DNA from: Candidatus Omnitrophota bacterium
Lineage (GTDB): Bacteria; Omnitrophota; Gorgyraeia; Aquiviventales; Aquiviventaceae
Direction of reading: 5' to 3'
NCBI GenBank assembly: GCA_016180575.1
Contig: JACPAY010000005.1
Coordinates: forward strand, 3,234 to 67,233
DNA: 64,000 nt
This document shows, one piece after another, positions 3,731-62,389 of this stretch (position 1 is its first letter; the number at the start of each line of letters is the position of its first letter). The position numbers and the translations under genes were made by a program. Below the pieces are notes generated by a model. It had not been told where the DNA came from and ran no database searches. It saw only the letters and a list, made by a program, of their open reading frames with translations.

Positions 3731-3745
3731 TTCCAGGAGGTTCCC

Positions 3746-10516: not shown

Positions 10517-10576
10517 TCGGGGACAGCCACTAATTTCCCTATGGCAGACTCAAGGAAATCAGTGGCTGTCCCCGAT
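10515..10576. repeat. Family C inverted repeat copy C1 (arm AATCGGGGACAGCCACTAATTTCC)
   Basis: 24-nt arms with one mismatch and a 14-nt loop. Overlaps the ACT-gene stop and the def start. Confidence 0.9.
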
Positions 10577-11071
10577 TTTTCCATCCGGCGGTTTCCGGAC
10601 CCCCTCCTCAAGCAGCCGACGCGCCGCGTGGACCGCGTGGACGACCGCATCCGGGCGCTGATCGACGCGATGGTGCGGACGATGCGCCATCACCCCCGCT
10701 GCGTGGGCCTGGCAGCCCCCCAGGTCGGCCGCGGCCTGCGCATCGCGGTGATGGACGCCTCCCGGCACCCCAAGGCCGCGGCGAGCCTCGGCCTGCTCGT
10801 CCTCGTCAACCCGCAGATCCTGGAGCGCGAGGGCAGCCTGCTGCAGCGGGAAGGGTGTCTCTCCGTCCCGGACTTCACCGGCAACGTCCCGCGCGCGTCG
10901 CGCGTGCGCCTGGCAACCTGGGACCGGGCGGGCTCCGCGATGGAGCTTGAGCTGGAGGGGTTCGAGGCGGTCATCGCGCAGCACGAGGTGGACCATCTCG
11001 ACGGGACGCTGTTCCTGGACCGCGTCGCCAACCTCGCCACCGATGTCTTCAAGCGGAAAACCTACCTGTGA
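10541..11071 (+). CDS. def: Peptide deformylase
   Basis: GLAAPQVG, EGCLSVP and HEVDHLDG motifs. Both candidate starts (ATG 10541, GTG 10562) lie inside element C1. Confidence 0.85.
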   Translation: MADSRKSVAVPDFSIRRFPDPLLKQPTRRVDRVDDRIRALIDAMVRTMRHHPRCVGLAAPQVGRGLRIAVMDASRHPKAAASLGLLVLVNPQILEREGSLLQREGCLSVPDFTGNVPRASRVRLATWDRAGSAMELELEGFEAVIAQHEVDHLDGTLFLDRVANLATDVFKRKTYL

Positions 11072-11080
11072 AGAAGGCGT

Positions 11081-11164
11081 GTGAGTCACAAAGTCACAAG
11101 GTCACAAAGTCACACGTGTGACCTTGTGACCGCGTGGTAGTCTCCAGTGTGTGACCCTGCGACC
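11081..11164. repeat. Family D: inverted arrays of GTCACAA(R)/(Y)TTGTGAC 8-mers, copy D1
   Basis: Four forward units, then two plus two reverse units split by a 16-nt spacer. Lies between convergent def and mqnD. Confidence 0.85.
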
Positions 11165-12820: not shown

Positions 12821-13597
12821 ATGACCCGCGCTGAACGGCTGCGCGTCTTCCAGCGGCGGCTCCTGCGCTGGTACCAGCGCCACCAGCGCGACCTCCCCTG
12901 GCGCAAGACGCGCGACCCGTACCGGATCCTCGTCTCCGAGGTGATGCTCCAGCAGACGCAGGTGGAGCGGGTCGTGCCCAAGTACCGCGAGTTCCTCCGG
13001 CGCTACCCGACCCTCGCGTCGCTGGCCCGGGCCCGGGTCGCGGAGCTGCGGAGGGTCTGGTATCCGCTCGGCTACAATGTCCGCCCGCTGCGCCTGCGCC
13101 GGATCGCGCAGCGCGCGCTGCGGGAGCACGACGGCCGCATCCCGGATTCGTACGACGGGCTGCTGGCGATGGACGGGATCGGCCGCTACACCGCGGGCGC
13201 TGTGCTGAGCTTCGCGTTCAAGCGCGACGCGCCCATTGTGGACACGAACGTCGCCCGATTGCTCTCGCGGTACTTCGGGCGGCCGAGGCGAGAGGGCCGG
13301 GCGGCTGCCCAGCACCGCCTCTGGCGCCTGGCGGAGGCGGTGATCCCGCCCGGGAAGGGCTATCTGATCAACCAGGCGCTCATGGACTTCGGGGCGGTCG
13401 TCTGCACCGCGCGCGCCCCGCGCTGTGGTTCCTGCGTCCTGCGCCGAAGCTGCCGCAGCTATCCATTCATAGGACCGCGGGTGACGCAGAGCCGGGGACC
13501 CCGTCGCCTGCCCGCAGGCGAAGGCCGAGGACAGCCGACGGGGTGGCGGCGCGGCAGGACCCGCGGTCCAATCGCTCATGCTGCGAAGGCGCCCTAG
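12821..13597 (+). CDS. mutY: A/G-specific adenine glycosylase / EndoIII-family HhH-GPD glycosylase (no MutY C-terminal domain)
   Basis: DPYRILVSEVMLQQTQV, HhH GIGRYTAGAV and the C-x6-C-x2-C-x5-C cluster. The last ~35 codons are encoded by repeat core E3. Confidence 0.8.
   Translation: MTRAERLRVFQRRLLRWYQRHQRDLPWRKTRDPYRILVSEVMLQQTQVERVVPKYREFLRRYPTLASLARARVAELRRVWYPLGYNVRPLRLRRIAQRALREHDGRIPDSYDGLLAMDGIGRYTAGAVLSFAFKRDAPIVDTNVARLLSRYFGRPRREGRAAAQHRLWRLAEAVIPPGKGYLINQALMDFGAVVCTARAPRCGSCVLRRSCRSYPFIGPRVTQSRGPRRLPAGEGRGQPTGWRRGRTRGPIAHAAKAP
13472..13569 (+). repeat. Family E core copy E3 with different termini (GGACCGCGGG / CCCGCGGTCC)
   Basis: Core tgacgcagagccgggga...ggtggcggcgcggcagga is nearly identical to the E2 core. 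It lies inside the 3' coding end of the mutY-like gene. Confidence 0.8.
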
Positions 13598-13976
13598 GCC
13601 CGCTCACTCAGCCATCGCCCTGATTGAGCGCCGGGGGCGCCTCCTCATCTGCCGGCGGCGCCCCGGCGGCTTCCTGGGAGGCTATTGGGAGTTCCCCGGG
13701 GGCAAGCGCAGGCCGGGCGAGCGCTGGGCCGCCTGCCTGCGGCGCGAGCTGCGCGAGGAGCTGGGGGTCACGGTCAAAGCGGTGCGGCCGCTCATGACGC
13801 TTCGACATCTGCAGGGCCCCAGCCCCGTCATCTGCAAAGTCTACCGCTGCGCCATCGCCCGCGGCAGGCCGCGGCCGCTCGCCGCCACAACCCTCCGGTG
13901 GGTGCCGGTTCGCCGGCTCGCCCGCTATCGCTTCCCGCCGGCCAACCGGCCACTCCTCGCCCGCCTGCGCAGTTGA
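13578..13976 (+). CDS. Nudix hydrolase (MutT-like)
   Basis: Intact Nudix box GGKRRPGERWAACLRRELREELGV. Confidence 0.75.
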   Translation: MLRRRPRPAHSAIALIERRGRLLICRRRPGGFLGGYWEFPGGKRRPGERWAACLRRELREELGVTVKAVRPLMTLRHLQGPSPVICKVYRCAIARGRPRPLAATTLRWVPVRRLARYRFPPANRPLLARLRS

Positions 13977-13995
13977 GCCGTCCCCGACGATGGCT

Positions 13996-14001
13996 TATAC
14001 T
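13996..14001 (+). promoter_or_regulatory. -10 box TATACT 8 nt before the otsA ATG (leaderless-type)
   Basis: tatact at 13996-14001; ATG at 14010. Confidence 0.4.
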
Positions 14002-14009
14002 GGATCATC

Positions 14010-15485
14010 ATGGTCTGGACGAACGCAAACCTGCGGGACATGATCCGCCAGCGGCTGGGCGATGAGCTGTTCGTCGTCGTCTCCAACCGCGAGCCGTACA
14101 TCCACCGCTTCGAGGGGGAGGAGATCGTCTGCGAGGTCCCGCCGAGCGGCCTGACGATCGCCCTGGACCCGGTCATGCGCGCCTGCGGCGGCCTCTGGGT
14201 GGCGCACGGAAGCGGCGAGGCCGACCATCAGGTCGTGGACGGTTCCGCCCACGTCCAGGTGCCCCCGGAGTCGCCGGCCTACACCCTGCGGCGGGTGTGG
14301 CTCACCAAAGAGGAAGAGCAGCGCTACTACTACGGCTTCGCCAACCAGGCGCTGTGGCCGCTCTGCCACATCGCCTACACCCGGCCCTCCTTCAACCTGG
14401 ACGAGTGGGAGACGTACCAGGCGGTGAACCGGAAGTTCGCCGACGCGGTGCTGGAGGAGATCGGCGACCGCCGCGCCTTCGTCTTCATCCAGGATTACCA
14501 CTTCGCGACGCTCTCGCGGCTGCTCAAGCGGGTCAACATCCGCACGGCGCAGTTCTGGCACATCCCCTGGCCGAACCCCGAGGCGTTCCGCATCTGCCCC
14601 TGGAGCGAGGAGATCCTGGACGGCCTCCTCGGCAACGACCTCCTGGGCTTCCACCTCCAGAATCACTGCCAGAACTTCATGGACACCGTCGACCGGACGA
14701 TCGAGGCGAAGATGGACTACGAGCGGTTTGAGATCACCCGCGGGGGCTGCACGACGATGGTGCGCCCATTCCCCATCAGCGTCGATTATGATGCGATTGT
14801 GGAGCGGGCGGCCAGCCCCCCCATCGCGGAGGAAGCCAAGCGCCTTGCGCGGCGCCACGGGCTCCGGAAGATGCTGGTGGGCCTCGGGGTGGACCGGCTC
14901 GATTACACCAAGGGGATCCCGGAGCGGCTCCGGGCGGTCGACCGGTTCCTGGAGCGCCATCCCGAGTTCCAGGAGAAGTTCGTCTTCGTCCAGGTGGGGG
15001 TCCCCAGCCGCGTCCACATCGAGGCGTATCAGCGGATCAACGACGAGATCGACCAGCTCGTCGAGTCCATCAACTGGAAGTACCAGCGGGACAACTGGAA
15101 GCCCATCCTCTTCCTGAAGGCCCACGCCTCGCCTATCACCCTCTACGCCTGGTACCAGCTCGCCAACTTCTGCGCGGTCAGCTCGCTCCACGACGGGATG
15201 AACCTCGTGGCGAAGGAGTTCGTCGCCTCGCGCGCCCGCGAGGACGGCGTGCTGATCCTGAGCCACTTCACGGGCGCCGCGCGCGAGCTGGTGGACGCTG
15301 AGCTCGTCAACCCCTACGCCGTGGATGAGATGGCCGAGGCGTTCCACCGGGCGGCGGTGATGCCGCTCGAGGAGCAGCAGCGGAAGATGCAGAAGCTCAG
15401 GGCGCAGGTCCACGAGCAGAACATCTACCGGTGGGCGGGGAAGGTCCTCTCGACGCTGTTCAAGTTCGAGTTCCAGGAGGCATGA
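14010..15485 (+). CDS. otsA: Trehalose-6-phosphate synthase (GT20)
   Basis: Full-length GT20 pattern: YYYGFANQALWPLCH, IQDYHF, GVDRLDYTKGI and LHDGMNLVAKEF. Confidence 0.9.
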   Translation: MVWTNANLRDMIRQRLGDELFVVVSNREPYIHRFEGEEIVCEVPPSGLTIALDPVMRACGGLWVAHGSGEADHQVVDGSAHVQVPPESPAYTLRRVWLTKEEEQRYYYGFANQALWPLCHIAYTRPSFNLDEWETYQAVNRKFADAVLEEIGDRRAFVFIQDYHFATLSRLLKRVNIRTAQFWHIPWPNPEAFRICPWSEEILDGLLGNDLLGFHLQNHCQNFMDTVDRTIEAKMDYERFEITRGGCTTMVRPFPISVDYDAIVERAASPPIAEEAKRLARRHGLRKMLVGLGVDRLDYTKGIPERLRAVDRFLERHPEFQEKFVFVQVGVPSRVHIEAYQRINDEIDQLVESINWKYQRDNWKPILFLKAHASPITLYAWYQLANFCAVSSLHDGMNLVAKEFVASRAREDGVLILSHFTGAARELVDAELVNPYAVDEMAEAFHRAAVMPLEEQQRKMQKLRAQVHEQNIYRWAGKVLSTLFKFEFQEA

Positions 15486-16294
15486 GACGGCCTCATGCGC
15501 TGCGCGACTGGCGTCGGCTGCGCGGCAGGATGGGCGGCGGCGCGTGGCTGGTGCTCATGGACTACGACGGGACGCTCACACCCATCCGGCCCACGCCCGC
15601 GGAGGCGCGCCTCGGCGCCGGGATGCGCGAGGCGGTAAGCGCCTTGAGCCGGGCGCGCGGCATCACCGTCGGCATCGTGAGCGGCCGATCCCTTGAGGCG
15701 GTGCGGCGGCTGGTCGGGCTACGGGGCGTGGTGTACGCGGGCAACCACGGCCTGGAGCTGCAGGGCCCCGGGCTGCGGTTCGTCCATCCAGGCGCCAGGC
15801 GGTCTATCCCGCTGCTGAGGCGGATTGCGAGGCAGTTGAGCCGGGCGCTTGCGGGCATCCCCGGGGCGCTGGTGGAATCCAAGCGGCTCTCGCTGAGCAT
15901 CCACTGGCGCCGGGTCCCGGCGGCTCACGCCGCGGCGTTCCACCGGCGCGTGGGGGCGGTCCTGGCGCCGTGGGCGGCGCGGCGGGCGGTGCGCGTGACG
16001 CGGGGCAAGCGGGTCGTCGAGGTCCGTCCCCCGGTGAGCTGGGATAAGGGGGCGGTCGTGGACTGGCTGGCGAAGCGGCACCGGTGCCGGGACGGGCGCC
16101 TCCTGTATCTTGGCGATGACCGGACGGATGAGGACGCCTTCCGCGCGGTCAACCGCCGATCCGGCATCGCGGTGTTCGTCGGGCGGCCCCGGCGCGGCAC
16201 CGCGGCCGGCTGGTGGCTGCGCGGCACGCAGGAAGCGGGCGAGCTCTTCAGGCGCATGGCGGAGGGGCGATGGGCGAACAGGCGAGCGCGGTGA
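15482..16294 (+). CDS. otsB: Trehalose-6-phosphate phosphatase
   Basis: LMDYDGTLTPI HAD motif I and GDDRTDEDAF motif IV. ATGA overlap with otsA. Confidence 0.8.
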   Translation: MRRPHALRDWRRLRGRMGGGAWLVLMDYDGTLTPIRPTPAEARLGAGMREAVSALSRARGITVGIVSGRSLEAVRRLVGLRGVVYAGNHGLELQGPGLRFVHPGARRSIPLLRRIARQLSRALAGIPGALVESKRLSLSIHWRRVPAAHAAAFHRRVGAVLAPWAARRAVRVTRGKRVVEVRPPVSWDKGAVVDWLAKRHRCRDGRLLYLGDDRTDEDAFRAVNRRSGIAVFVGRPRRGTAAGWWLRGTQEAGELFRRMAEGRWANRRAR

Positions 16295-16971
16295 CGGGAA
16301 CGCCGGCGGCGGCGGTGCCGAAGCCGTTTCAGTTCCGGACGGCGCTCGTGCTCCAGGAGTCCACCGGGCTGCGGGCATCGACGCTGGTCACCCTGGCCAA
16401 GCTCCTCCGCAAGGTGCCGGACTCCTGCGTCTACTACCACACCCACCACTTCGTGCTGGAGCACCATTACCTGACGCCTGAGCCGACCAACGACTTCGCC
16501 TACTGGGTGGGGGAGATCTTCGGGGACGAGACGCTGGGGGAGCTGTTGGCCAGCGTCGACATCATGGAGTACACCGCCCTCCAGGGCCTCCGCGAGGTGC
16601 TGGCCGGCACGATCGAGCGGTACATCAAGGAGCACCCGGCGACCCGGATCAAATTCGCGCCGTCGGGCCGGGAGTTCTTCTTCATCAAGTCGGTGCACGT
16701 CATCATGCCGACCCCCTACACCGTGTCCACCCTGGCGGAGTTCGCCCAGGCCCTGGAGCAGGTCTCCCTCCACTCGCTCTACTTCCACATCTTCGACGCC
16801 CGGCTGCGCCTGGGGCGCCCGACGAACGACTTCTCGCTGTGGCTCACGGAACAGCTGGGGCTGAAGGCGCTCGGCGAAAGCGTCGCCGGCCTGAACCCCT
16901 ACGCGCACACGCTGCAGACGCTCCGCACCATCCTGCTCTCCCTCATCCGCGAGGCGGCTGCTCATGCCTGA
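16270..16971 (+). CDS. DUF5752-like protein associated with the trehalose synthase gene
   Basis: FQFRTALVLQESTGLRA..YYHTHHF pattern recalled from DUF5752. Overlaps both neighbours. Confidence 0.45.
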   Translation: MGEQASAVTGTPAAAVPKPFQFRTALVLQESTGLRASTLVTLAKLLRKVPDSCVYYHTHHFVLEHHYLTPEPTNDFAYWVGEIFGDETLGELLASVDIMEYTALQGLREVLAGTIERYIKEHPATRIKFAPSGREFFFIKSVHVIMPTPYTVSTLAEFAQALEQVSLHSLYFHIFDARLRLGRPTNDFSLWLTEQLGLKALGESVAGLNPYAHTLQTLRTILLSLIREAAAHA

Positions 16972-18211
16972 GAACGCCACGGCGACCCTGGCCGCCTACG
17001 AGCCCATCGCCGGCAAGAGCGTCGTCGACGAGCTGCGCCAGCTCGCCGGCCGGCTCGCCGGCAAGCGGATCCTCATGGTCAACTCGACCCGGAAAGGAGG
17101 CGGGGTGGCGGAGATCCTCATCCGCATGGTCCCCCTGCTGGCCGAGCTGGGGCTGGAGGTCCGCTGGGAGGTGGTCGAGGGGTCAGAGCCGTACTACAAG
17201 GTGACCAAGAAGTTCCACAACGCGCTCCACGGGGCCGCGGAGCTCTTCACCCAGGAGATGTTCGACCTCTTCCTGGAGGTCGGACGAGCCAACGCCAAGC
17301 GGATCCCGCTGGAGGCCGATTTCGTGTTCATCCACGACCCCCAGCCCCTGCCGCTGGTGGAGATGCGGAAGCGGCACCCCTCCTCCCGCTGGGTGTGGCG
17401 GTGCCACATCGACGTCTCCCGCCCCAACCAGGCGGTGTGGCGGTTCCTCCAGCCCTTCATCCTGCAGTTCGACGCGGCGATCTATTCCACCCCCGCGTTC
17501 GCCCAGCCGCTCAAGATGCGGCAGGTGCTCATCCCCCCCTCCATCGATCCGCTGAGCGACAAGAACCGGGACCTGCCGCAGGAGGAGATCGACGCGGTCA
17601 TGCGGCGCCTCGAGATCCCGCGGGACCGGCCGATCGTCACGCAGGTCTCGCGGTTCGACCGCCTGAAGGATCCGGTGGGCGTCATCGAGGCCTTCAAGCG
17701 CGTCCGCCGCTCGGTCAAGTGCCGCCTGGTGCTCGCCGGGGGGCCAGCCACCGACGACCCGGAGGCCGAGGAGGTGCTGGGGCTCGTGCGGGAGCAGGCG
17801 AAGGGCAACCCGGAGATCCACCTCCTGATGCTGCCGCCGGACAGCAACATCGAGATCAACGCGCTCCAGCGCGCCTCCGCGGTCGTCGTGCAGAAGTCGC
17901 TGCGCGAGGGGTTCGGCCTCACCGTGTCGGAGGCGCTCTGGAAGGGCCGCCCGGTCGTCGCCTCGGCGGTGGGCGGCATCCCCCTGCAGGTGAAGCACCA
18001 TCACAGCGGCCTCCTCGTGCACAGCGTCGAAGGGGCCGCCTACGCCATCCGGCAGCTGCTGGGCAACCCGGCGTACGCGCAGCGGCTCGGCGAGAACGGC
18101 CGGGAGCACGTCCGGGAGAACTTCCTGCTCACCCGCCACCTCGTGGACTACCTCCTGACGTGCCTCACCACGCAGTACGCGGATGAGACGATCTTCCTCG
18201 ACGGCAGCTGA
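16964..18211 (+). CDS. treT: GT4 glycosyltransferase, TreT-like trehalose synthase
   Basis: VNSTRKGGGVAEIL N-terminal motif and C-terminal EGFGLTVSEALWKG GT4 motif. Confidence 0.65.
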   Translation: MPENATATLAAYEPIAGKSVVDELRQLAGRLAGKRILMVNSTRKGGGVAEILIRMVPLLAELGLEVRWEVVEGSEPYYKVTKKFHNALHGAAELFTQEMFDLFLEVGRANAKRIPLEADFVFIHDPQPLPLVEMRKRHPSSRWVWRCHIDVSRPNQAVWRFLQPFILQFDAAIYSTPAFAQPLKMRQVLIPPSIDPLSDKNRDLPQEEIDAVMRRLEIPRDRPIVTQVSRFDRLKDPVGVIEAFKRVRRSVKCRLVLAGGPATDDPEAEEVLGLVREQAKGNPEIHLLMLPPDSNIEINALQRASAVVVQKSLREGFGLTVSEALWKGRPVVASAVGGIPLQVKHHHSGLLVHSVEGAAYAIRQLLGNPAYAQRLGENGREHVRENFLLTRHLVDYLLTCLTTQYADETIFLDGS

Positions 18212-22070: not shown

Positions 22071-22131
22071 GCCACAACGTCACAGGGTCACACGTCACAT
22101 GCGACCTTGTGACATGTGACTCTGTGACACC
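22071..22131. repeat. Family D copy D2
   Basis: gccacaacgtcacagggtcacacgtcacatgcgaccttgtgacatgtgactctgtgacacc, between vanY-like and the permease gene. Confidence 0.8.
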
Positions 22132-29231: not shown

Positions 29232-29349
29232 ACTCTCGAAACGGCAAACTTCCCGCAAGGGAGGGACGCAAAGCCGCGGGTCCTGGTGCCTGGCTCTTCG
29301 CGAAGCGAAGTGCCTGGCACCGGAAGGATAGCCGGGCTACCGAAAGAGG
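29232..29349 (+). promoter_or_regulatory. c-di-GMP-I (GEMM-I) riboswitch
   Basis: ACGGCAAAC-[ttccc GCAA gggag hairpin]-GGGACGCAAAGCC-[long P2 hairpin ggtgcc..ggcacc]-AAGGATAGCCGGGCTACCGA matches the order and conserved blocks of the Vc2-type aptamer as I recall them. Ends at the ATG of the DUF948-like gene. Confidence 0.75.
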
Positions 29350-29990: not shown

Positions 29991-30053
29991 AATCGGGGAC
30001 AGCCACTAATTTCCTAGTGGTGGCCGAAGGGAAATTAGTGGCTGTCCCCGATT
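29991..30053. repeat. Family C inverted repeat copy C2
   Basis: Perfect 24-nt arms at 29991-30014 and 30030-30053. Confidence 0.9.
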
Positions 30054-30098
30054 GTTTCCCGATTGTTTCCCCAATTGTTGGCGATTGTTTGCTATAAT
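30049..30098 (+). promoter_or_regulatory. Four tandem 11-bp iterons (CGATTGTTTCC x2, CCAATTGTTGG, CGATTGTTTGC) abutting a TATAAT box
   Basis: Iterons at 30049-30092; TATAAT at 30093-30098. The first iteron overlaps the end of element C2. Confidence 0.6.
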
Positions 30099-47188: not shown

Positions 47189-48491
47189 GTTCGCCTTCCC
47201 GGACGGCTTCCTCTGGGGCAGCGCCACCTCCGCCCACCAGGTCGAGGGGGACAACGTCCACAGCGACTGGTGGGCGTGGGAGCAGGCCGGCCGCGTGAAG
47301 GAGCCCTCCGGGCTCGCCTGCGACCACTACCGGCGCTTCGCGCAGGATTTCGACCTCGCAGCGGAGCTGGGACACAACGCGCACCGCTTCTCGGTTGAGT
47401 GGAGCCGCCTCGAGCCCGCGGAGGGCCGGTGGGACGAGGCGGCGCTTGCGCACTACGTCGAGGTGGTGCGCGCGCTCCGCGCGCGGCGCCTGGAGCCGAT
47501 CGTGACGCTCCACCACTTCACCACCCCCCAATGGTTCGCCTTGCGGGGCGGATGGGTGCGGCCGGACTCGGTGGAGGCCTTCGCGCGGTATGTCCGCCGG
47601 GTCGCCGCGGCGCTGGGCGATTCGGTCCGGTACTGGGTCACCATCAACGAGCCGATGGTCTATGTCCGGATGCATTACATTCAGGGATTGGGCCCGCCCG
47701 GCGCCCGCGACCTCCCGCAGGCGCTCCGCGTCATCGAGCATCTCATCCGCGCCCACGCGGCCGCCTACCGCGTGCTGCACGGCGCGCGCCGCGGGCCAGG
47801 CCCGGCCCCGCAGGTCAGCGTCGCCCATCACGCCCCCGCCTTCGGGCCGTGCCGGCGGTGGTGGCCGCCGGACCGCTGGATGGCCGCGCGGACCGACCGC
47901 GTGTTCAACTGGGCGCTCCTCGAGGCGCTGACCGAGGGCCGGTGGGTCGTGCCCGGAGTGGGGAAGTGGCGCATCCCGGAGGCCGCAGCGACGCTCGACT
48001 ATGTCGGCGTGAACTTCTACGGGCGGCAGTTCATCCAGTGGGCCCCCGCGGCGGGCGCGTGGCCCGGCGCGAGCTGCGACCTGGGACACCATCCGCGGGA
48101 GGTCACCGAGCGCACCTCGTACGGCTGGGATGTGCACCCGGCCTCCTTCGTGCAGGTCCTCTCGCGCATCGGGCGGATGGGGCGGCCGATCCTCGTGACG
48201 GAAAACGGCACCTACATGCAGGACGACGCCAGGCGCTGGGACTTCATCCTGCGCCACGTGCAGGCGATGGCGCGCGCGTTCCAGCAGGGCGCGCGGATCA
48301 TCGGCTACTGCTACTGGTCGCTCCTCGACAACTTTGAGTGGGCGGATGGGTTCGGCCCGCGCTTCGGCCTGGCGGAGGTGGACTACGCGACCCAGCGGCG
48401 GACCATCCGAGACAGCGGCCGCCGGTACGCGGAGATCTGCCGCGCCAACCGCGTGGAAATCGGGGACATGGAAATCGGGGACAGCCACTAA
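47181..48491 (+). CDS. GH1 beta-glucosidase
   Basis: FLWGSATSAHQVEG, TINEP (acid/base) and VTENG (nucleophile) motifs. The last ~10 codons and the stop are encoded by element C3. Confidence 0.85.
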   Translation: MPEFAFPDGFLWGSATSAHQVEGDNVHSDWWAWEQAGRVKEPSGLACDHYRRFAQDFDLAAELGHNAHRFSVEWSRLEPAEGRWDEAALAHYVEVVRALRARRLEPIVTLHHFTTPQWFALRGGWVRPDSVEAFARYVRRVAAALGDSVRYWVTINEPMVYVRMHYIQGLGPPGARDLPQALRVIEHLIRAHAAAYRVLHGARRGPGPAPQVSVAHHAPAFGPCRRWWPPDRWMAARTDRVFNWALLEALTEGRWVVPGVGKWRIPEAAATLDYVGVNFYGRQFIQWAPAAGAWPGASCDLGHHPREVTERTSYGWDVHPASFVQVLSRIGRMGRPILVTENGTYMQDDARRWDFILRHVQAMARAFQQGARIIGYCYWSLLDNFEWADGFGPRFGLAEVDYATQRRTIRDSGRRYAEICRANRVEIGDMEIGDSH

Positions 48492-48544
48492 TTTGCGAAT
48501 GGGAACAATTGTGTCCAGGCTTAAATTAGTGGCTGTCCCCGATT
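48455..48544. repeat. Family C inverted repeat copy C3 with 15-nt tandem duplication of the left end
   Basis: ggaaatcggggacat/ggaaatcggggacagccactaattt ... aaattagtggctgtccccgatt. Confidence 0.85.
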
Positions 48545-48548
48545 GTTG

Positions 48549-49392
48549 ATGCGGGCGTTGGTGCTGGGGGCGACCGGGCATATCGGGCTGCCCCTGGGTG
48601 TTCCATGCCGCTGGCTACTATCCCCGGTTTCGAGAGCGGCGCAAGGAGGCCATCGAGCGGGGCCTCCGGTCCACGCGCCGTCTCCTCGAGCAGCTCCGGC
48701 GGATGGGCCCCGCGCGCATCGTCTTCACGAGCAGCGCAGCCACCATCCGGCGCGTGCCCGGGCGGCCGGCGACCGAAGCGGACGCCGAGCCCTGGCCGCC
48801 GGCCGAGTGGCGGCCGCTCTACGCGACGGTCAAACTCGCGATGGAGCACGAGGTGCTGGAGGCCTGCCGGGGCGGGCTGCCCGCCGTCGTGGTGAACCCC
48901 AGCCTCTGCGTCGGGGAGTACGACGCGCGGCCCTTCTCCGGCCGGGCCGTCCTGGCATTCGCCCGGCCCGGCATCCCGGTCTACGTGCGGCACACCTTCA
49001 ACGCGGTCTACACCGGCGACGTCGCCATTGGGCACCTCCGCGCGGCCGAGCGGGGGCGTCTCGGCGAGCGCTATCTCCTCGTCGGCCGCAACGTGACCCT
49101 GCGGGAGTTCGCAACGCTCGTCGCCCGGGCGGCCGACGTGTGCCCGCCGCGGTGGCGCGTCCCGTACGGCCTCGTGTGGGCCGCGGCCGTCTCGACGGAG
49201 GCCGCCGCCTGGCTGGCGCGCACCGAGCCGTTGCTGCCGCGGGGTGCTGTCCACTCGCTGCGGATGGGACAGCTGCTGGATGGGACGAAGGCGCTGCGGG
49301 AGCTCGCGCTGCCCCAGACGCCGCTTGAGGAAGCCATCCGGCGGGCGCTTGCGTGGTTTAAGTTGCTTCCTTCCGGTATCAGATACCGGTAA
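48549..49392 (+). pseudogene. NAD-dependent epimerase/dehydratase with internal deletion and frameshift
   Basis: MRALVLGATGHIG Rossmann start (frame of 48549) is joined after ~16 codons to VFHAAGYY... (frame of 48598). About 50 residues normally between these motifs are missing. Confidence 0.7.
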
Positions 49393-49427
49393 AATAAACG
49401 GGTTAGTAGGCCGGTATCTGATACCGG
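49373..49427. repeat. Family B inverted repeat copy B3
   Basis: ccggtatcagataccgg ... ccggtatctgataccgg. Encodes the last codons (GIRYR) and the stop of the epimerase pseudogene. Confidence 0.85.
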
Positions 49428-49441
49428 AACGGGAGGCGCTC

Positions 49442-54287: not shown

Positions 54288-54656
54288 ATGTCGGACCTCT
54301 ACTTCCAGCACTATCTCTTTATCGGCGTGCTGACCGCCGTCGCGGTCGCCTTCGGCGTGGCGCCCCTCATCCTGGCCCGGTTCATCGCGCCGCGCAGGCC
54401 CGCGCCGTCCAAGCAGGCCCCTTACGAGTGCGGGATCGAGTCGGCGGGCGATCCCTGGGTCCAGTTCCGCGTGCAGTATTACCTCTACGCCCTGCTCTTC
54501 GTCATCTTCGACGTCGAGGTGGTCTTCATCTACCCCTGGGCGCTCGTCTGGAAGGGCCTCGGGCCGGTCGTGCTCGCCGAGATGGCGCTCTTCCTCGCCA
54601 TCCTCGGCGTGGCGCTTGCGTACGCGTGGAAGAAAGGCGTGCTCGAATGGGAGTAG
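54288..54656 (+). CDS. nuoA: NADH-quinone oxidoreductase subunit A
   Basis: YECGIE and [15 protein letters not shown] motifs. Confidence 0.9.
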
Positions 54657-55240
54657 ACGAGGGGCTGAAGAGCGAGCTGCAGAAGCAGGGCGTCTACGTG
54701 ACGACGTGGGACCAGCTCGTCAACTGGGGCCGGAGCAACTCGATCTGGCCGCTCCAGTTCGGCCTCGCCTGCTGCGCCATCGAGATGATCGCGACCGCGG
54801 CCTCGCGCTATGACATCGCCCGCTTCGGCTCCGAGATCTTCCGCGCCAGCCCCCGCCAGGCGGACCTCATGATCGTGGCGGGGACGGTGACGAAGAAGAT
54901 GGCGCCGCAGGTCGTGCGGCTCTACAACCAGATGGCGGAGCCCAAGTACGTCATCTCGATGGGCGCCTGCGCCACCTCGGGCGGCCCGTTCCACACCGGC
55001 TACAACGTGCTCAAGGGGATCGACCGGTACATCCCCGTGGACGTGTACATCCCAGGCTGCCCGCCGACGCCCCAGGGGCTCCTCGAAGGGCTGATGCGGC
55101 TCCAGGAGCGGATCAAGAGCCGCTCGATGGGCCAGGAGGTGGGGGCGAAGCAGGCGGCGTATCCCGTGCCCGCCTTCGGCGCCTCGGGCCTCGAGCCCCG
55201 CTATACCCCCGGCGTCTTCCAGCCCCGCAAGCCCTGGTGA
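54647..55240 (+). CDS. nuoB: NADH-quinone oxidoreductase subunit B
   Basis: [18 protein letters not shown] and PGCPP N2-cluster motifs. C-terminal extension present. Confidence 0.9.
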
Positions 55241-55264
55241 AAAACGGTACCGGTTCCCATTGTT
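55239..55264. repeat. Family A palindrome copy A6
   Basis: gaaaaacggtaccggttcccattgtt, between nuoB and nuoC. Confidence 0.8.
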
Positions 55265-55267
55265 CCG

Positions 55268-55774
55268 ATGCTGCCATCCCCTGATGAACTGAAACGCGCG
55301 TTGGAGCAGTTGCTGCCCGGCGTCTCGCTGACGCTGGAGGGAACGGTCCTGTTCGTGGGGCCGAAGGACCTTGCCGCGGTGTGCCGCTGCCTGAAGGAGC
55401 AGGAGCGGTTCGGGCTCGACTACCTCGCGAACCTGACGGCGGTGGACTACCCGACGGAGCACCTGCCTGCCGCGCCGGAGGCGAGCACGAGTGGCGCGGC
55501 GCAGGCAGGGCGGATGGATGTGGTCTACCACCTCTATTCCATGGCGCAGAAGCACGGCCCGGTCATCCTCAAGGTGAAGCTCCCGCGGGCGAATCCGGTC
55601 GTCGCATCGGTGACCCCGATCTGGCGGGGCGCCGAGTTCCAGGAGCGCGAGGTCTATGACCTCTACGGGGTGACCTTCGAGGGGCATCCGGATCTGCGCC
55701 GCATCCTCATGTGGGACGGCTTTCAGGGCCACCCGATGCGCAAGGACTACGTGCCGGAGGATCAGGATGCTTAG
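55268..55774 (+). CDS. nuoC: NADH-quinone oxidoreductase subunit C (contains in-frame hairpin insert H2)
   Basis: LTAVDY...VVYHLYS and [22 protein letters not shown] motifs. Confidence 0.85.
55462..55509 (+). repeat. Family H intragenic hairpin insert H2 (48 nt, in frame)
   Basis: cctgcctgccgcgcc-16 nt-ggcgcggcgcaggcagg inside nuoC, translated [16 protein letters not shown]. Confidence 0.75.
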
Positions 55775-55850
55775 CGCGACGGAGCTGCTCGAGGTGAGCC
55801 TCCCCGGCCCGCCTGTCATCAGAGCCGGGGCGGGCGGGCCGCAGCCATGA
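55767..55850 (+). other. Relic or alternative nuoD 5' end (27-codon [19 protein letters not shown]...)
   Basis: Its ATG overlaps the nuoC stop. ATELLEVSL parallels [14 protein letters not shown] of the annotated nuoD. It is followed by the hairpin cggcccgcc..ggcgggccg. Confidence 0.45.
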
Positions 55851-56986
55851 TAACACCGCACGCGATTTCCGCCGAGCTGCTGGAAGTCAGCTTGGGCCCC
55901 CAACATCCGTCCACCCACGGCGTCTTCCGCATGAACGCGACGCTCGACGGCGAGACCATCGTGAAGCTCAAGCCGGTGATGGGCTACCTGCACCGCAACC
56001 ACGAGCAGATCGGCGAGCACGCGACCTACATCGCGAGCTTCCCGTTCACCGACCGGCTGGATTACTTCTGCGCGATGTCGAACAACCTGGGCCTTGCCCT
56101 CGCCATCGAGAAGCTGGGCGGCATCCCGGTCTCGGAGCGGGGCGAGTACCTGCGCGTCATCATGGCGGAGCTCACCCGCCTGGTGAACCACACCGCCGTC
56201 ACCGGCTTCCTCCTCAACGACATGGGCGCGTTCGGCACGCCGCTCCTCTATGCCTTCCGCGAGCGCGAGAAGATCCTCGACCTATTCGAAGAGGCGTCCG
56301 GCTCCCGGATGATGTGCAACTACATCCGGCCAGGCGGGGTGCGGCAGGACGTGCCGCCCGGGTGGCTGGATCGCGCCCGGGAACTCGTGCGGGGCTATCC
56401 GGCGTTCCTGGATGAGTTCGAGCGGCTGCTGACGGAAAACGAGATCATCCGCCAGCGCGCGCAGCAGGTCGGCGTCCTGCCGAAGGAGCTGGCGGTCAGC
56501 GCCAGCATCACCGGCCCGATGCTGCGCGCCTCAGGGGTCAACTACGATATCCGCAAGGTGGACGGCTACTCCCTCTACCCGCGCTTCAAGTTCAAGGTGC
56601 CGCTGGGCACGGTGGGCGACGTGTACGACCGCTACTACGTCCGCATCCTCGAGATGCGCGAGAGCGTCAAGATCCTGGAGCAGGCGCTGAAGGAGATCAA
56701 TGACGCGAGCCCGTCCATCAGCCCGAAGGGGCTGGCGCTCGTGAAGGCGCCGCGGACGTTCCGCCCGCCGAAGGGCGAGGCCTACGGCCGCATCGAGGCG
56801 CCGAAAGGGGAGCTGGGGTTCTACCTTGTGAGCGACGGCACGCCGCAGCCCTACCGCTACCACATCCGGGCGCCGAGCTTCATCAACCTGACGGTGCTCG
56901 AGGACCTGTGCCTCAATCATAAGGTGGCGGACGTCATCATCATCCTCGGCTCGGTGGACATCGTGATGGGTGAAGTTGACCGATGA
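55847..56986 (+). CDS. nuoD: NADH-quinone oxidoreductase subunit D (NdhH-like)
   Basis: [22 protein letters not shown] and APKGELGFY motifs with C-terminal [12 protein letters not shown]. Lacks the SMEx(4)HHFK segment of NuoEFG-containing complex I as I recall it. Confidence 0.85.
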
Positions 56987-56990
56987 CGGA

Positions 56991-57090
56991 GTCACAAAGT
57001 CACACAGAGGAGAAGCTGCACGCGGTCACAATGTCACATGGCTTCATGGCCAGTCCACCTTGTGACTTTGTGACCTTGTGACTTTGTGAC
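56991..57090. repeat. Family D copy D3
   Basis: 2+2 forward units and 4 reverse units (cttgtgactttgtgaccttgtgactttgtgac), between nuoD and nuoI. Confidence 0.85.
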
Positions 57091-57108
57091 TTCATAGGAG
57101 TATCTGCA

Positions 57109-57726
57109 ATGATTGGGGTTGGGGTGCTCAAGGGGATGGGGGTGACGCTCAAGACGTTCCTCGAGACCTACCCCTGGGGGCGGGGGCTGCTGCGGACGCT
57201 GCGCATGCCGCCGACGAACGGCCTTGTGACGGTCCAGTACCCCGACGTCAAGCAGCAGCACTCGGAGCGGTTCCGCTACTTCCCGTTCCTCGTGTACGAC
57301 CGGACGCCGGATGACCTGCGCTGCGTCGCCTGCAAGATCTGCGAGCAGGAGTGCCCCCCGCAGTGCATCCACATCGTGGGGCCGGCGAAGGACGCGCAGG
57401 GCCGTCCGCTCAAGGCGCACGGCCGGACCTACCCGGTCGCGTTCGACATCGATATGTCCATCTGCATGTCCTGCCGCATCTGCGTGGATGTCTGCCCCTT
57501 CGACGCCATCGAGATGGACAACCAGTACGAGCTCTCCGCCTCGGACCGTTGGGATCCCATGGTCTACGACAAGGAGAAATTGCTCAAGCCGGCCGAGTAC
57601 TTCCAGCAGATCAAGCCCACTGAGGCGGCCGAGGTGGACGCGCGCCTCGCCGCCAAGGCGAAGAAGGCCGCACCTGCCGCCCCACAGCCGCCAGCCCCGC
57701 CGGCCGCGCCGCCCCCCGCCGCATGA
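57109..57726 (+). CDS. nuoI: NADH-quinone oxidoreductase subunit I
   Basis: CVACKICEQECP and CMSCRICVDVCP 4Fe-4S motifs. Ala/Pro-rich C-terminal tail. Confidence 0.9.
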   Translation: MIGVGVLKGMGVTLKTFLETYPWGRGLLRTLRMPPTNGLVTVQYPDVKQQHSERFRYFPFLVYDRTPDDLRCVACKICEQECPPQCIHIVGPAKDAQGRPLKAHGRTYPVAFDIDMSICMSCRICVDVCPFDAIEMDNQYELSASDRWDPMVYDKEKLLKPAEYFQQIKPTEAAEVDARLAAKAKKAAPAAPQPPAPPAAPPPAA

Positions 57727-58988
57727 GCATTTCCCTCGACCAGCTCTTCGTGCAGCTCCACGGCGCCCTCCTCGGCGCGCTGCCGGCCTGGGCGCGCCCC
57801 TGGGTCTCGATCCTGGTGCGGATCGGGGTCATCGCGGCGCTCGCCCCGCTCATCATGATGTACCTCACGTGGATCGAGCGGAAGCTCATCGCCCGGATGC
57901 AGAACCGGTTTGGCCCGACCCGCGTGGGGCGCTACGGGCTGCTGCAGCCGCTCGCCGACGGGCTGAAGATGCTGATTAAGGAGGACATCGTCCCGACGGG
58001 CGCGGACCGGTTGCTCCACCTGGCGGCCCCGATCCTCGCGGTGGTCCCGGCGGTCCTGCTCTTCGCGGTGCTGCCCTTCGGGCGCAACCTCATCGCGGCC
58101 GACCTCAACGTCGGGCTCCTCTACGTCTTCGCGGTCTCCTCCGTCAGCTCCTACGCGATCTTCATGGGCGGCTGGGCCTCCCGGAGCAAGTTCTCCATCA
58201 TCGGGGCGATGCGCTCGGTCGCGCAGATCATCTCCTACGAAGTCCCGGGCGTCCTCTCGGTCGTCGCGGTCATCATGGTCACGGGCACGCTGTCCATGGT
58301 GGGCATCGTCGAATCGCAGGCCGAGCGCTGGTTCGTCTTCACCCCCTGGGGGCTCGTCGGTTGCCTCCTCTTCTTCCTCAGCGGGGTGGCCGAGGTCAAC
58401 CGCACGCCCTTCGACATGCCGGAGGCGGAGTCCGAGCTCGTCGCGGGCTTCCACACCGAGTACAGCGGGATGAAGTTCGCCCTGTGGTACATGGCGGAGT
58501 TCCTCGAGTCGTTCGCCGTCTGCGCCCTGACGGTGACGTTCTTCCTCGGCGGGTGGCAGGGGCCGCCGGTGCCGTTCTGGGCGCTGGCCGCGCTTTTGGC
58601 CGCGCTCGTCGGGACCGCCCGCCTGCTCATGTGGCCGGTGCGGCTCCTGGGGGCGGCGGCGATGGCGGGGGCGGGGGTGCTGTGGGGCGCTGAGCCGATC
58701 CCCTCCTGGATCTGGTTCCTCGCCAAGACGTACGCGCTCGTCTTCGTCCTCGTCTGGTTCCGCGGCACGCTGCCGCGCCTGCGGATCGATCAGCTGATGG
58801 GCCTCGCGTGGAAGTTCTTCCTGCCGCTTGGGCTCATCAATATCCTCGCCGCCGGCCTCTGGGTCTTGTGGCCGTTCCCCATCGGAACCGCGGCGAGCGC
58901 GCTCCTGCTCCTCGTCAGCGGCTGGGGCCTTGTGCGCGCGAACAACCCCGCGCCGCTGCAGTCCCGCACGTACGTCTTCGCCGAATAA
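57723..58988 (+). CDS. nuoH: NADH-quinone oxidoreductase subunit H
   Basis: ERKLIARMQNRFGP, GLLQPLADGLK and NRTPFDMPEAESELVAGFHTEYSG motifs. Confidence 0.9.
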   Translation: MSISLDQLFVQLHGALLGALPAWARPWVSILVRIGVIAALAPLIMMYLTWIERKLIARMQNRFGPTRVGRYGLLQPLADGLKMLIKEDIVPTGADRLLHLAAPILAVVPAVLLFAVLPFGRNLIAADLNVGLLYVFAVSSVSSYAIFMGGWASRSKFSIIGAMRSVAQIISYEVPGVLSVVAVIMVTGTLSMVGIVESQAERWFVFTPWGLVGCLLFFLSGVAEVNRTPFDMPEAESELVAGFHTEYSGMKFALWYMAEFLESFAVCALTVTFFLGGWQGPPVPFWALAALLAALVGTARLLMWPVRLLGAAAMAGAGVLWGAEPIPSWIWFLAKTYALVFVLVWFRGTLPRLRIDQLMGLAWKFFLPLGLINILAAGLWVLWPFPIGTAASALLLLVSGWGLVRANNPAPLQSRTYVFAE

Positions 58989-59002: not shown

Positions 59003-60775
59003 ATGACATCGCAGCCTGGGGACTCTCCAGCCCGCGTCGCGGCCTCGGAGCCGGCCGCTATCGAGTGGGAGCGCAAGCCGAAGACGATCGACGCCAACCT
59101 CAAGGACTACGACGCCGCCTACAAGGGCTTCGACTGGAAATCGGTCGAGCGGGAGTTCGACTGGTCGAAGACGGGGAAGGTGAACGTGGTCCATGAGGCG
59201 GTGGACCGCCACGCCGCCTCCCCGCGCAAGGACAAGCTCGCGCTCGCCTTCACCGACTTCGCGGGCCGGGATGAGCGCTGCACCTTCCAGGACCTCAAGC
59301 GGCTCACGAGCCGCTTCGCCCACGCGCTGCGGCAGCTCGGCGTGAAGAAGGGCGACCGCGTGGGGACGTTCCTGCCGCGCACGCCCGAACTCTACATCGC
59401 GATCCTCAGCATCAACCGCATCGGCGCCATCCCCGTGCCGCTCTTCGAAGCGTTCATGGAGCAGGCGGTCGAGGACCGGCTGGGGGACAGCGAGGCGGTC
59501 GCCTGCGTCACCTCGCCCGCCCTGAAGGGCCGCATCCCGCTCAAGAAGCTGCCGAAGCTCAAGCGGCTCATCCTCGTCGGCGCCTCCGGCGCGCTCGCCC
59601 CCAACGAGGCGAGCTACGAGCAGGCCACCGCCAACGCCCCGGATTGGGTGGAGCCGGAGTGGCTCACTGTTGACGACGGCCTCGTCATCCACTACACCTC
59701 AGGCTCCACGGGAAAGTCCAAGGGGGCGCTCCACCGCCAGTACGCGATGGTCGGCCACTACCAGACGAGCAAGTGGGCGCTCGACCTGCGGGATGACGAC
59801 GTGTACTGGTGCACGGCGGATCCTGGGTGGGTGACCGGCACCTCCTACGGCATCTACGGTCCCTGGACGCTGGGGATCTCGAGCGTCGTGATCGGCGGCC
59901 GCTTCGACCCGGACCGGTGGTACGAGACCATCCAGCGCTACAAGGTCACGATGTGGTACAGCGCGCCCACCGCCTACCGCATGCTCATGTCCGCGGGCGA
60001 GGCCATCCCGAAGAAGTACGACCTCAAGAGCCTGCGCCACATCTGCAGCGTCGGCGAGCCGCTCAATCCGGAGGCGCTGAAGTGGGTCAAGAAGATCACG
60101 GGCCTGGCGCCCCATGAGACCTGGTGGATGACCGAGACCGGCATGCAGCTCATCTGCAACTATCGGAGCAAAGATTTCCCCATCGGGTGCACGGGCAAGC
60201 CGTTCCCGGGCACCTACGCGACGGTGGTGAACGACCAGGGCAGGGAGCTGCCGCCGGGCGAGCTCGGCCACCTCGTCGTCAAGCCGGGCTGGCCGTCGAT
60301 GATGAAGGAGATCTGGCGAAACCCCGTCAAGTATCAGGAGTACTTCCGCATCCCCGGCTGGTATGTGAGCGGCGACAGCGCGTACCGGGACGAGCAGGGC
60401 TACCTCTGGTACCAGGGAAGGGCGGACGACGTCATCAAGACGGCGGGCGAGCGCGTGGGGCCGTTCGAGGTCGAAAGCGCCCTCGTCGCGCACCCGGCGG
60501 TGGCCGAGGCGGGGGTGATCGGCAAGCCCGACCCGGTGCGCGGGCACATCATCAAGGCCTTCGTCTCGCTGCGCAAGGGCCACCAGCCCTCGGAGCAGCT
60601 CAAGCAGGACATCGCCGACTTCGTGAAGAACAACCTTGCGGCCCACGCCGCCCCGCGCGAGATCGCGTTCGTGGACAAGGTGCCCAAGACCCGGTCGGGG
60701 AAGATCATGCGCCGCGTCCTGCGCGCCTGGGACCTCGGCCAGCCCGTCGGCGACATCTCGACGATGGAAGAATGA
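59003..60775 (+). CDS. acs: AMP-forming acetyl-CoA synthetase family ligase
   Basis: YTSGSTGKSKG AMP motif, WWMTETG, SGDSAYRDEQGY and PKTRSGKIMRR motifs. Confidence 0.8.
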   Translation: MTSQPGDSPARVAASEPAAIEWERKPKTIDANLKDYDAAYKGFDWKSVEREFDWSKTGKVNVVHEAVDRHAASPRKDKLALAFTDFAGRDERCTFQDLKRLTSRFAHALRQLGVKKGDRVGTFLPRTPELYIAILSINRIGAIPVPLFEAFMEQAVEDRLGDSEAVACVTSPALKGRIPLKKLPKLKRLILVGASGALAPNEASYEQATANAPDWVEPEWLTVDDGLVIHYTSGSTGKSKGALHRQYAMVGHYQTSKWALDLRDDDVYWCTADPGWVTGTSYGIYGPWTLGISSVVIGGRFDPDRWYETIQRYKVTMWYSAPTAYRMLMSAGEAIPKKYDLKSLRHICSVGEPLNPEALKWVKKITGLAPHETWWMTETGMQLICNYRSKDFPIGCTGKPFPGTYATVVNDQGRELPPGELGHLVVKPGWPSMMKEIWRNPVKYQEYFRIPGWYVSGDSAYRDEQGYLWYQGRADDVIKTAGERVGPFEVESALVAHPAVAEAGVIGKPDPVRGHIIKAFVSLRKGHQPSEQLKQDIADFVKNNLAAHAAPREIAFVDKVPKTRSGKIMRRVLRAWDLGQPVGDISTMEE

Positions 60776-60799
60776 AAAACGGGACCGGGTCCCTTTTTT
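60775..60799. repeat. Family A palindrome copy A7
   Basis: aaaaacgggaccgggtccctttttt, starting at the last base of the acs TGA stop. Confidence 0.85.
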
Positions 60800-60817
60800 C
60801 CACCGTTGGCCGATCAG

Positions 60818-60842
60818 AAAAAATGGACCCGGTCCCAATTTT
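60818..60842. repeat. Family A palindrome copy A8
   Basis: aaaaaatggacccggtcccaatttt, supplying the tlpA-like start codon. Confidence 0.85.
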
Positions 60843-62148: not shown

Positions 62149-62207
62149 GTCACAAGGTCACAAGGTCACAAGGTCACATGTGACGTGTGACGCTGTGACG
62201 TTGTGAC
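62149..62207. repeat. Family D copy D4 (most regular)
   Basis: gtcacaag x3 + gtcaca | tgtgac gtgtgac gctgtgac gttgtgac, starting 4 nt from the queD ATG. Confidence 0.9.
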
Positions 62208-62217
62208 CCACAATGGG

Positions 62218-62389
62218 TTAGAACCGGTTTCATAAATCCCCGCGGCCGCGCTGGGCCTAGCGGCGAGGCCCGCAAGGCGCGAGGAGCGTGGCGTACTCGC
62301 AGACGAGTACGCGAGCGACGAGCAACGCCGCGGGCCGACGCCGAGGCGCTCGCAACGCGGCTCGCGCGGATTTATGAAACCGGTTCTAG
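62218..62389. mobile_element. Family G MITE-like element (22-nt TIR TTAGAACCGGTTTCATAAATCC)
   Basis: TIRs at 62218-62239 and 62368-62389. The interior is a long imperfect palindrome centred on gcgtactcg-caga-cgagtacgc. Confidence 0.8.

Follow-up and report, generated by a model that had tools for sequence, protein, structure and literature searches.

Four hairpins built from short tandem repeats, here called D1 to D4, lie at gene junctions in a 64-kb stretch of DNA (64,000 nucleotides of contig JACPAY010000005.1, referred to below as the window) from a Candidatus Omnitrophota bacterium. In each of them an array of units with the hexamer GTCACA is followed by an array of inverted units with TGTGAC. 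These hairpins are probably dispersed insertion elements, as indicated by filled and empty sites in related genomes and by non-repeat sequence that two of the copies have in common. A fuller model, to which we give somewhat more credence than doubt, regards them as gene-less palindromic insertions that resemble the intervening sequences (IVSs) of rRNA and are kin to elements carrying a gene for a four-helix-bundle protein.

The four hairpins and their insertion sites

All four hairpins were found where a preliminary description of this DNA had placed them (Table 1). The hexamer GTCACA/TGTGAC occurs 31 times on the two strands of the window, and 29 of these occurrences fall inside the four intergenic clusters. 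Likewise, GTCACANNGTCACA with at most one mismatch gave 19 matches against 0.06 expected, a count reached in none of 100 shuffles. In every cluster the 5′ arm is made of GTCACA units and the 3′ arm of TGTGAC units, with three to four units per arm and a period that is mostly 8 nt and sometimes 7. The hexamer is conserved across units and the 2-nt spacers are variable, many of those in D4 being unpaired. The arrays are thus confirmed as real and non-random. The architecture given in the preliminary description, tandem GTCACA units and then inverted ones, was recovered as about 4+4 units in D2, two of which are degenerate, and as 4+4 in D4; this last is the cleanest copy, with unit spacings of 8, 8 and 8 nt in the first arm and 7, 8 and 8 nt in the second. 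The spacers that had been reported in the stems of D1 and D3 proved to be non-repeat interruptions of about 19–20 nt, in one arm of each. The same hexamer runs through all four, which agrees with their earlier treatment as one family, and no other periodic inverted array was seen in the window, where several non-periodic palindrome families are also present. The stems are about 50% G+C in a window of 69% G+C. The rest of the window contains GTCACA twice. This count stands at rank 29 from the bottom among 180 hexamers with identical composition, and avoidance of the hexamer as the mark of a GTCACA-specific factor was therefore rejected.

Table 1. Position, make-up and surroundings of D1 to D4 (window coordinates)
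Feature	Coordinates	Strand	Make-up	Gene context
D1	11081..11164	none		convergent def/mqnA-like spacer, filled by the hairpin; def stop 11071, mqnA-like stop 11180
D1 5′ arm	11085-11114		4 GTCACA units	
D1 3′ arm	11117-11130; 11131-11149; 11150-11163		TGTGACCTTGTGAC; 19-nt non-repeat interruption; TGTGACCCTGCGAC (2+2 units)	
D2	22071..22131	none	about 4+4 units: GCCACA, GTCACA x3, TGCGAC, TGTGAC x3	minus strand: vanY-like stop 22135-22133, amino-acid permease ATG 22065-22063
D3	56991..57090	none		between nuoD (stop 56986) and nuoI (ATG 57109); AGGAG 8 nt before nuoI ATG
D3 5′ arm	56991-57004; 57005-57024; 57025-57038		2 units; interruption CAGAGGAGAAGCTGCACGCG (20 nt); 2 units	
D3 apical loop	57039-57060		22 nt	
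D3 3′ arm	57061-57090		4 TGTGAC units	
D4	62149..62207	none	4 GTCACAAG-type units directly followed by 4 TGTGAC units	queD ATG 62145, minus strand

Each copy was predicted to fold as RNA into one long hairpin with a stem of 20–39 pairs; the energies range from -35 to -54 kcal/mol and the z-scores, relative to shuffled sequences, from -3.5 to -5.8. The predicted stem of D4 has about 25–29 pairs, with internal loops of 1–2 nt at the unit spacers, and on the sense strand its base pairs with the AU of the queD AUG. The stem base of D2 contains the stop codon of the upstream gene. As had been described, three copies are situated between co-directional genes and near the next start codon; the gaps to that codon, measured as 5, 18 and 3 nt for D2, D3 and D4, come close to the 4–18 nt reported before. 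The start codons downstream of D2 and D4 have no Shine-Dalgarno motif, which was rejected as a special trait of these copies because many genes of the window are without one. D1–D4 match no Rfam family, in the window at gathering thresholds or around D4 at E≤1, where only chance matches resembling miRNA precursors were obtained.

The origin of the hairpins was examined in syntenic contigs retrieved from relatives (loci numbered with the prefix L); those with empty D1–D3 sites share 80–91% protein identity with the window. The window's own NuoD shares 90% identity with proteins that carry the name Omnitrophica WOR_2 or Candidatus Omnitrophica. The D1 site is empty in L222, in which the mqnA-like protein is 89% identical and the spacer measures 4 nt, compared with 108 nt in the window. 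At the D2 site, the TAG is directly followed by the ATG in L210 (permease 91% identical), and L211 (permease 88% identical) also has no spacer; in L213 the vanY/permease junction holds an inverted array of GGATTTT-type units. At the D3 site of L126, L128 and L129 (NuoD 80–85% identical), nuoD ends and nuoI begins in one overlapping ATGA, and the window reads ATGA, hairpin with a short tail containing AGGAG, and ATGA again. In the lineage of the window, D1–D3 have therefore been inserted where genes adjoin closely, at stop and start codons or immediately beside them. The D4 site is occupied in all three relatives examined by inverted arrays of other units, namely GTTGGCGC in L120, TGGAAGC in L121 and GTCAGAAG in L123, the last of which differs from GTCACAAG by one nucleotide. 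No GTCACA array was found at the syntenic sites of close relatives.

Direct repeats flank some of these insertions. D3 is bounded by ATGA at 56983–56986, in the nuoD stop, and at 57109–57112, in the nuoI start. D2 has GATG on both flanks, and none was seen at D1. Elsewhere, flanking repeats were noted in L125 (ATGATC), L154 (CG(G/A)TGA) and L216 (ATG). That of L125 bounds a non-periodic palindrome at nuoD/nuoI (3620–3760 of that locus, TCCCACCACCTGCCAG ... CTGGCAGGTGGTGGGA) with exact copies of ATGATC, and this pair is the clearest candidate for a target-site duplication at that junction.

The preliminary description had pointed out that D3 sits where nuoEFG would be expected. The complex I operons of the window (54428–58988) and of loci L119–L123 are of the 11-subunit type, nuoA-B-C-D-I-H, without nuoEFG. 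Since every relative has this gene order with a tight or overlapping D/I junction, the reading of D3 as a scar of nuoEFG loss was rejected, and the hairpin is taken as an insertion into an ancestrally tight junction.

Two of the copies are also related to each other beyond their repeats. When D1 is taken on the minus strand and D3 on the plus strand, the two align over their entire length, interruption included. Their 3′ arms are identical over 30 nt, as is the order of the spacers, and the interruptions ACACTGGAGACTACCACGCG and ACAGAGGAGAAGCTGCACGCG show 13 identities when aligned, a score reached by 15 of 2000 shuffles. The two copies are 46 kb apart in opposite orientations. An interruption shared in this way goes beyond slippage and, with one hexamer at four unrelated junctions, argues for dispersal of an element. 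The preliminary description had allowed that the copies might be simple local duplications, which was not seen, given the non-repeat sequence common to D1 and D3 and the empty sites of relatives. Two properties of miniature inverted-repeat transposable elements (MITEs) are therefore present: filled and empty sites for D1, D2 and D3, and shared sequence beyond the repeat for D1 and D3.

Gene-bearing counterparts and arrays in other genomes

In a locus of Bacteroidetes (L028), a GTCACA array, a small open reading frame (ORF) and a TGTGAC array stand in succession, and the ORF encodes a four-helix-bundle protein of family TIGR02436. Such proteins are also named PF05635 '23S rRNA intervening sequence protein', or S23p, and are relatives of Avd from diversity-generating retroelements. 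A four-helix-bundle gene with flanking arrays was likewise found in an Omnitrophota locus (L038). Among loci chosen by NuoD, a gene lies between arrays in L154 (two copies), L138, L146, L166 and L192. These gene-bearing elements are located at nuoB/nuoC and nuoD/nuoI, and their first codons (MSYNVK) are encoded by array units.

The nuoD/nuoI junction of a soil clade presents both forms. It is empty in nine contigs, filled with arrays and gene in L154, and filled with arrays only in L138, the NuoD proteins of the last two being 90% identical. The gene-less loop of L138 begins with ATGTTACAAC, which resembles the start of the gene. Truncated four-helix-bundle genes are found in L028, L105 and L139, consistent with decay towards gene-less hairpins. 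The same architecture surrounds a four-helix-bundle gene in many phyla, and gene-bearing and gene-less forms share a junction in close relatives.

An independent sample was provided by 14 four-helix-bundle genes on plasmids. Inverted arrays flank nine of them, direct arrays two, an array on one side only one, and no array the remaining two. The genes with inverted arrays come from Nostoc (several), Scytonema, Geminocystis, Picosynechococcus, Riemerella and Azospirillum, the last inside a 23S rRNA gene. Over 81 kb around eight of the plasmid genes, 12 of the 25 arrays with a period of 7 or 8 nt were no more than 120 nt away from the gene, in a zone accounting for 6% of that sequence. Gene-less arrays in L214 and L217 use a unit common to the gene-bearing element on the same plasmid, and units follow the clades of the proteins, GTCAGRA accompanying three proteins of 77–80% identity and AAAGCTA two of 74% identity. 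In a conserved Nostoc plasmid operon A-B-C, the gene is at A/B in two plasmids and at B/C in a third, and the remaining junction is tight in each. The gene-bearing elements therefore also behave as insertions. Four-helix-bundle genes were seen within other operons as well: as cas6-[gene]-cas4 and cas10-[gene]-cmr3 in L207 (Pseudanabaena) and L208 (Picosynechococcus), and antisense between the ribonucleotide reductase genes nrdB and nrdA in L214 (Nostoc edaphicum).

Arrays of this kind differ among genomes in unit sequence and in unit number. ATTTTGG units occur in L121 at nuoD/nuoI and at SDR/HAMP, and GTCAGAAG units in L123 at nuoA/nuoB and at queD; further types are CTGGGCT in L127 and GTTACAA in L138. 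One unit tends to dominate each genome, GTCACA accounting for four of four hairpins in the window, GTCAGA for two of three in L123 and GGATTTT for two of three in L121, so that unit families tend to be genome-specific. L212 has a repeat family of its own (GGGACGTCTCTATTTTTCGCC and its complement, at 1640–1690 and 3015–3220 of that locus) in several spacers, including the vanY/permease junction. Other inserted cargo was also observed in L123, in the form of an AMP-binding (acs-like) gene containing an intein with a LAGLIDADG domain (13314–16214) and a PemK toxin module between acs and a thioredoxin-like gene (16363–17294). Periodic arrays did not flank either of these or, more generally, the toxin-antitoxin modules inserted in relatives.

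A scan for three tandem GTCACA units, with one genome per species, returned at least 118 stretches. Among the matches listed, inverted pairs come from Omnitrophota, Planctomycetota, Verrucomicrobiota and Bacteroidales, and they are GTCACA-first in 15 cases and of the opposite polarity in 2 (two-sided binomial P about 0.002, by hand arithmetic). Among 122 GTCACA arrays from other genomes, those with the start of a long ORF in the next 45 nt downstream number 24 in the TGTGAC sense and 12 in the opposite sense, a weak preference for sites just upstream of ORF starts. Viral contigs of 4–6 kb (L224–L230) carry GTCACA-NN-GTCACA ... TGTGAC-NN-TGTGAC, which is 2+2 units around a short loop. These sites are near-identical in four contigs, their polarity is weaker (7 to 3) and no four-helix-bundle gene is near them; they may be a different kind of site, namely iterons of replication origins.

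Known repeat families and rival explanations

The IVSs of 23S rRNA are found with an S23p ORF, as in Coxiella, Leptospira and the Azospirillum plasmid locus described here, or without one, as in Salmonella. The four-helix-bundle ORF is carried in the loop or has been lost, and the sporadic distribution of these elements suggests horizontal spread. In Coxiella burnetii the IVS is a 428-nt element in 23S rRNA; its ends pair into a stem of 28 bp and its loop carries the S23p ORF (PMC4990558). Tandem GACAGAT heptamers, two or three according to strain, precede this ORF, and the site of RNase III cleavage is in the stem, where the first of these repeats begins; the authors of the study regarded the element as selfish and of unknown origin (PMC4990558). 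D1–D4 and IVSs are both stem-loop insertions bounded by terminal inverted repeats, and D1–D4 have the long stem (about 20–30 bp) composed of tandem repeats that is characteristic of this class. In IVSs the stem heptamers are GACAGAT in Coxiella and GAGGAC-type in Azospirillum (L220), with copy numbers that vary between strains. In contrast, D1–D4 are placed in the spacers of protein-coding operons and not in rRNA helices (an Rfam scan located no rRNA in the window), and they use an 8-nt unit and contain no ORF, although the ORF is optional in the IVS class.

The short tandemly repeated repetitive (STRR) sequences of cyanobacteria and the TAACTGA arrays are similar in their tandem units of 7–8 nt, in their intergenic position, frequently stopping a few nucleotides short of a start codon, and in having one dominant unit per genome and the same unit in distant phyla. 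Direct arrays of the TAACTGA heptamer occur in Beggiatoaceae, Cyanobacteria and Bacteroidetes and mostly end 1 nt before start codons, for which no mechanism was given (PMC4679880). In Nostoc, heptamer repeats near start codons affect expression (bioRxiv 10.1101/2022.06.06.494920). However, these repeats are nearly all direct, with 169 direct sets and one inverted set in the BOGUAY genome, and no long stems are predicted for them, whereas D1–D4 have an 8-nt unit in place of the direct 7-nt repeat and pair inverted arrays into a hairpin. The papers found on STRR and TAACTGA repeats made no link to four-helix-bundle genes.

Repetitive extragenic palindromic (REP) sequences, their mosaics (BIMEs), REPINs and MITEs are also short, non-coding, palindromic, multi-copy and intergenic, are tolerated in operons and differ in presence between relatives. 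REP/BIME elements are defined by an imperfect palindrome of 20–40 bp with GTAG or CGTC at one end; in D1–D4 the arms are arrays of GTCACANN, the stem is periodic and takes up almost the whole element. The contrast with REP/BIME hairpins that the preliminary description had drawn was borne out, as no GTAG/CGTC head is present; nor was an ORF resembling IS200 or the REP-associated tyrosine transposase (RAYT) found in the 64-kb window, where tblastn with Nostoc IS200/IS605 TnpA as the query gave nothing at E≤10. Rho-independent terminators, which have a G+C-rich stem and then a run of T, were likewise rejected, since the G+C content is about 50% in the stems of D1–D4 and 69% in the genome, no T-run comes after any copy and three copies are within operons. 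Eukaryotic foldback (FB) elements have inverted terminal arms made of tandem short repeats, as do D1–D4, and differ in belonging to another domain of life, in their kilobase scale and in their different, known transposase. D1–D4 are best described as a variant of known IVS-like or MITE-like palindromic insertions. The literature search, itself incomplete, brought up no description of inverted periodic hairpins at operon junctions and no paper tying arrays of this kind to four-helix-bundle genes outside rRNA; the exact repeat strings returned nothing relevant.

In the model put forward here, D1–D4 would all be copies of one non-autonomous insertion element, small, palindromic and made up almost wholly of a stem, in which tandem 8-nt units read GTCACANN in the 5′ arm and NNTGTGAC in the 3′ arm. 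The copies in the window would derive from gene-bearing elements by loss of the gene, or would be mobilised by such elements. On transcription of the operon the arms would pair into a double-stranded RNA stem of roughly 20–30 bp or more, which RNase III may cut by analogy with rRNA IVSs. Such cutting, for which the chances are judged to be a little short of even, would split the polycistronic mRNA at the hairpin and so allow the insertion to be tolerated in coupled junctions. The downstream gene would keep its own initiation signal, as with the AGGAG of nuoI at D3, or would start at the stem base, as at D2 and D4. Unit number would drift through replication slippage, and the arms may be kept complementary by correction between them.

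Several observations weigh against this model. No four-helix-bundle gene was matched by hmmsearch in the window or in about 90 kb of close relatives, so the link to the gene rests on shared architecture, on one GTCACA example from Bacteroidetes and on another clade. The sequence read from this genome is the 64-kb window, and no transposase or other mobility enzyme was identified in it, the IS200/IS605 TnpA search having covered those 64 kb. The direct repeats flanking D2 and D3 overlap start and stop codons, so that selection for intact genes could mimic a target-site duplication. Of 13 hairpins compared, only 8 have a sense RNA more stable than the antisense one, and this split carries no signature of selection at the RNA level. 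In addition, direct GTCACA arrays without an inverted partner outnumber inverted ones by 124 to 17 among the matches listed, and the two plasmid genes with direct arrays indicate that the stem is not universal.

Other explanations have less to recommend them. The hairpins might have been built in place by slippage and palindrome correction, and be immobile and kept as useful intercistronic stems for mRNA stability or translational coupling. The inverted array before queD in all four genomes, with a different unit in each, and the repeated occupation of nuoD/nuoI and vanY/permease by different units would suit such an origin, as would the stop codon in the stem base of D2, the partly paired start codon of D4 and the variable number of heptamers among Coxiella strains. 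It is nevertheless improbable. The same hexamer stands at four separate junctions of one genome, the non-repeat interruption is common to D1 and D3 in opposite orientations, and D1 lies between convergent 3′ ends where coupling is inapplicable. Moreover, three of the sites are without any spacer in the closest relatives, which therefore offer no local sequence that could have been expanded. A quite unlikely alternative is that the copies are sites of translation initiation or post-transcriptional control, in which the NNTGTGAC array binds a factor or the ribosome and the GTCACA arm masks it. D2 and D4 do end 5 and 3 nt from start codons that have no Shine-Dalgarno motif, TAACTGA arrays mostly end 1 nt before start codons, at which ribosome-binding sites are rare (PMC4679880), and Nostoc heptamer repeats near start codons alter reporter expression (bioRxiv 10.1101/2022.06.06.494920). 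Against this, no gene lies downstream of D1, D3 brings an AGGAG of its own, many genes of the window dispense with a Shine-Dalgarno motif anyway and the bias towards ORF starts is weak (24 against 12 of the 122 arrays elsewhere).

Marginally less credible again is a set of DNA sites at 8-bp spacing for a GTCACA-specific protein, as an operator, an iteron or a nucleoid-organising array. Under such an arrangement one might expect the conserved hexamer with its variable and, in D4, often unpaired 2-nt spacers, the 15-to-2 polarity among the matches listed from other genomes, the iteron-like inverted 2+2 sites of viral contigs, and unit families that are partly genome-specific and track the clades of the four-helix-bundle proteins. 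Yet the copies are spread over four unrelated operons, with one between convergent gene ends, relatives have unrelated units at the same junctions, an 8-bp period sets successive sites on different helix faces, and no candidate regulator gene adjoins any copy. Very unlikely, finally, are REP/BIME-type elements (REPINs) mobilised by a RAYT, or simple Rho-independent terminators. The intergenic, palindromic and multi-copy nature of the hairpins, their presence inside operons and the location of D1 where a bidirectional terminator would be expected speak for them; the periodic stem, the absence of a GTAG or CGTC head at both ends of every copy, the lack of a TnpA match in the window, the missing T-run after any stem on either strand and the three copies in operons immediately before start codons speak against them.

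Neighbouring features and wider meaning

Other repeats were noted around the hairpins. A second, non-periodic palindrome family is present at 10515–10577, 29991–30053 and 48473–48544, with perfect or near-perfect arms of 24 bp (AATCGGGGACAGCCACTAATTTCC / GGAAATTAGTGGCTGTCCCCGATT). One of its copies overlaps the predicted def start at 10541, and tandem 11-mers (30045–30090) and 15-mers (48454–48483) adjoin two of them. Between the SDR stop and D4, at 62219–62388, a 26-nt inverted repeat, TAGAACCGGTTTCATAAATCCCCGCG, surrounds 118 G+C-rich nucleotides; an independent short-read contig of 1.2 kb (L223), on which that SDR gene is also found, terminates within the element, an indication that it breaks assemblies. 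The palindrome AAAAACGGGACCGGGTCCCTTTTTTC and its partner follow the acyl-CoA synthetase stop directly (60775–60842), and a perfect 19-bp inverted repeat, TTCCGGTATCAGATACCGG, is situated at 49371–49429. The only Rfam match of the window is a c-di-GMP-I-GGC riboswitch aptamer (RF03167) on the plus strand at 29234–29345, whose 62.9 bits exceed the gathering score.

For genome analysis, hairpins of the D1–D4 type break assemblies and confuse start-codon calling in metagenome-assembled genomes. For the organism, these copies mean that tight gene junctions, even the ATGA overlaps of a complex I operon, can accept insertions of 60–100 nt that form perfect hairpins. This leads to testable hypotheses, both on the tolerance of such insertions through RNase III processing and on a role of Avd-like proteins outside diversity-generating retroelements. 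If the model holds, it would connect three sets of observations that have been kept separate for decades: the rRNA IVSs and their unexplained S23p gene, the short tandem heptamers known from cyanobacteria and giant sulfur bacteria, and the many orphan genes annotated as 'four helix bundle protein' within operons.

A bolder proposal, which is rather doubtful, is that periodic-stem hairpins and the four-helix-bundle (S23p/Avd-like) genes often enclosed by them belong together in a single class of mobile elements, widespread but not yet recognised as such. Its members would insert in operons, where one gene stops and the next starts, and in rRNA, at helix tips, in Omnitrophota, Cyanobacteria, Bacteroidota, Proteobacteria and other phyla. 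The encoded protein would then act on its own arrays of 7–8-nt units, for mobility or maintenance, and gene-less copies such as D1–D4 would be miniature derivatives. The long-unexplained STRR repeats of cyanobacteria and the TAACTGA-type arrays would also be accounted for.

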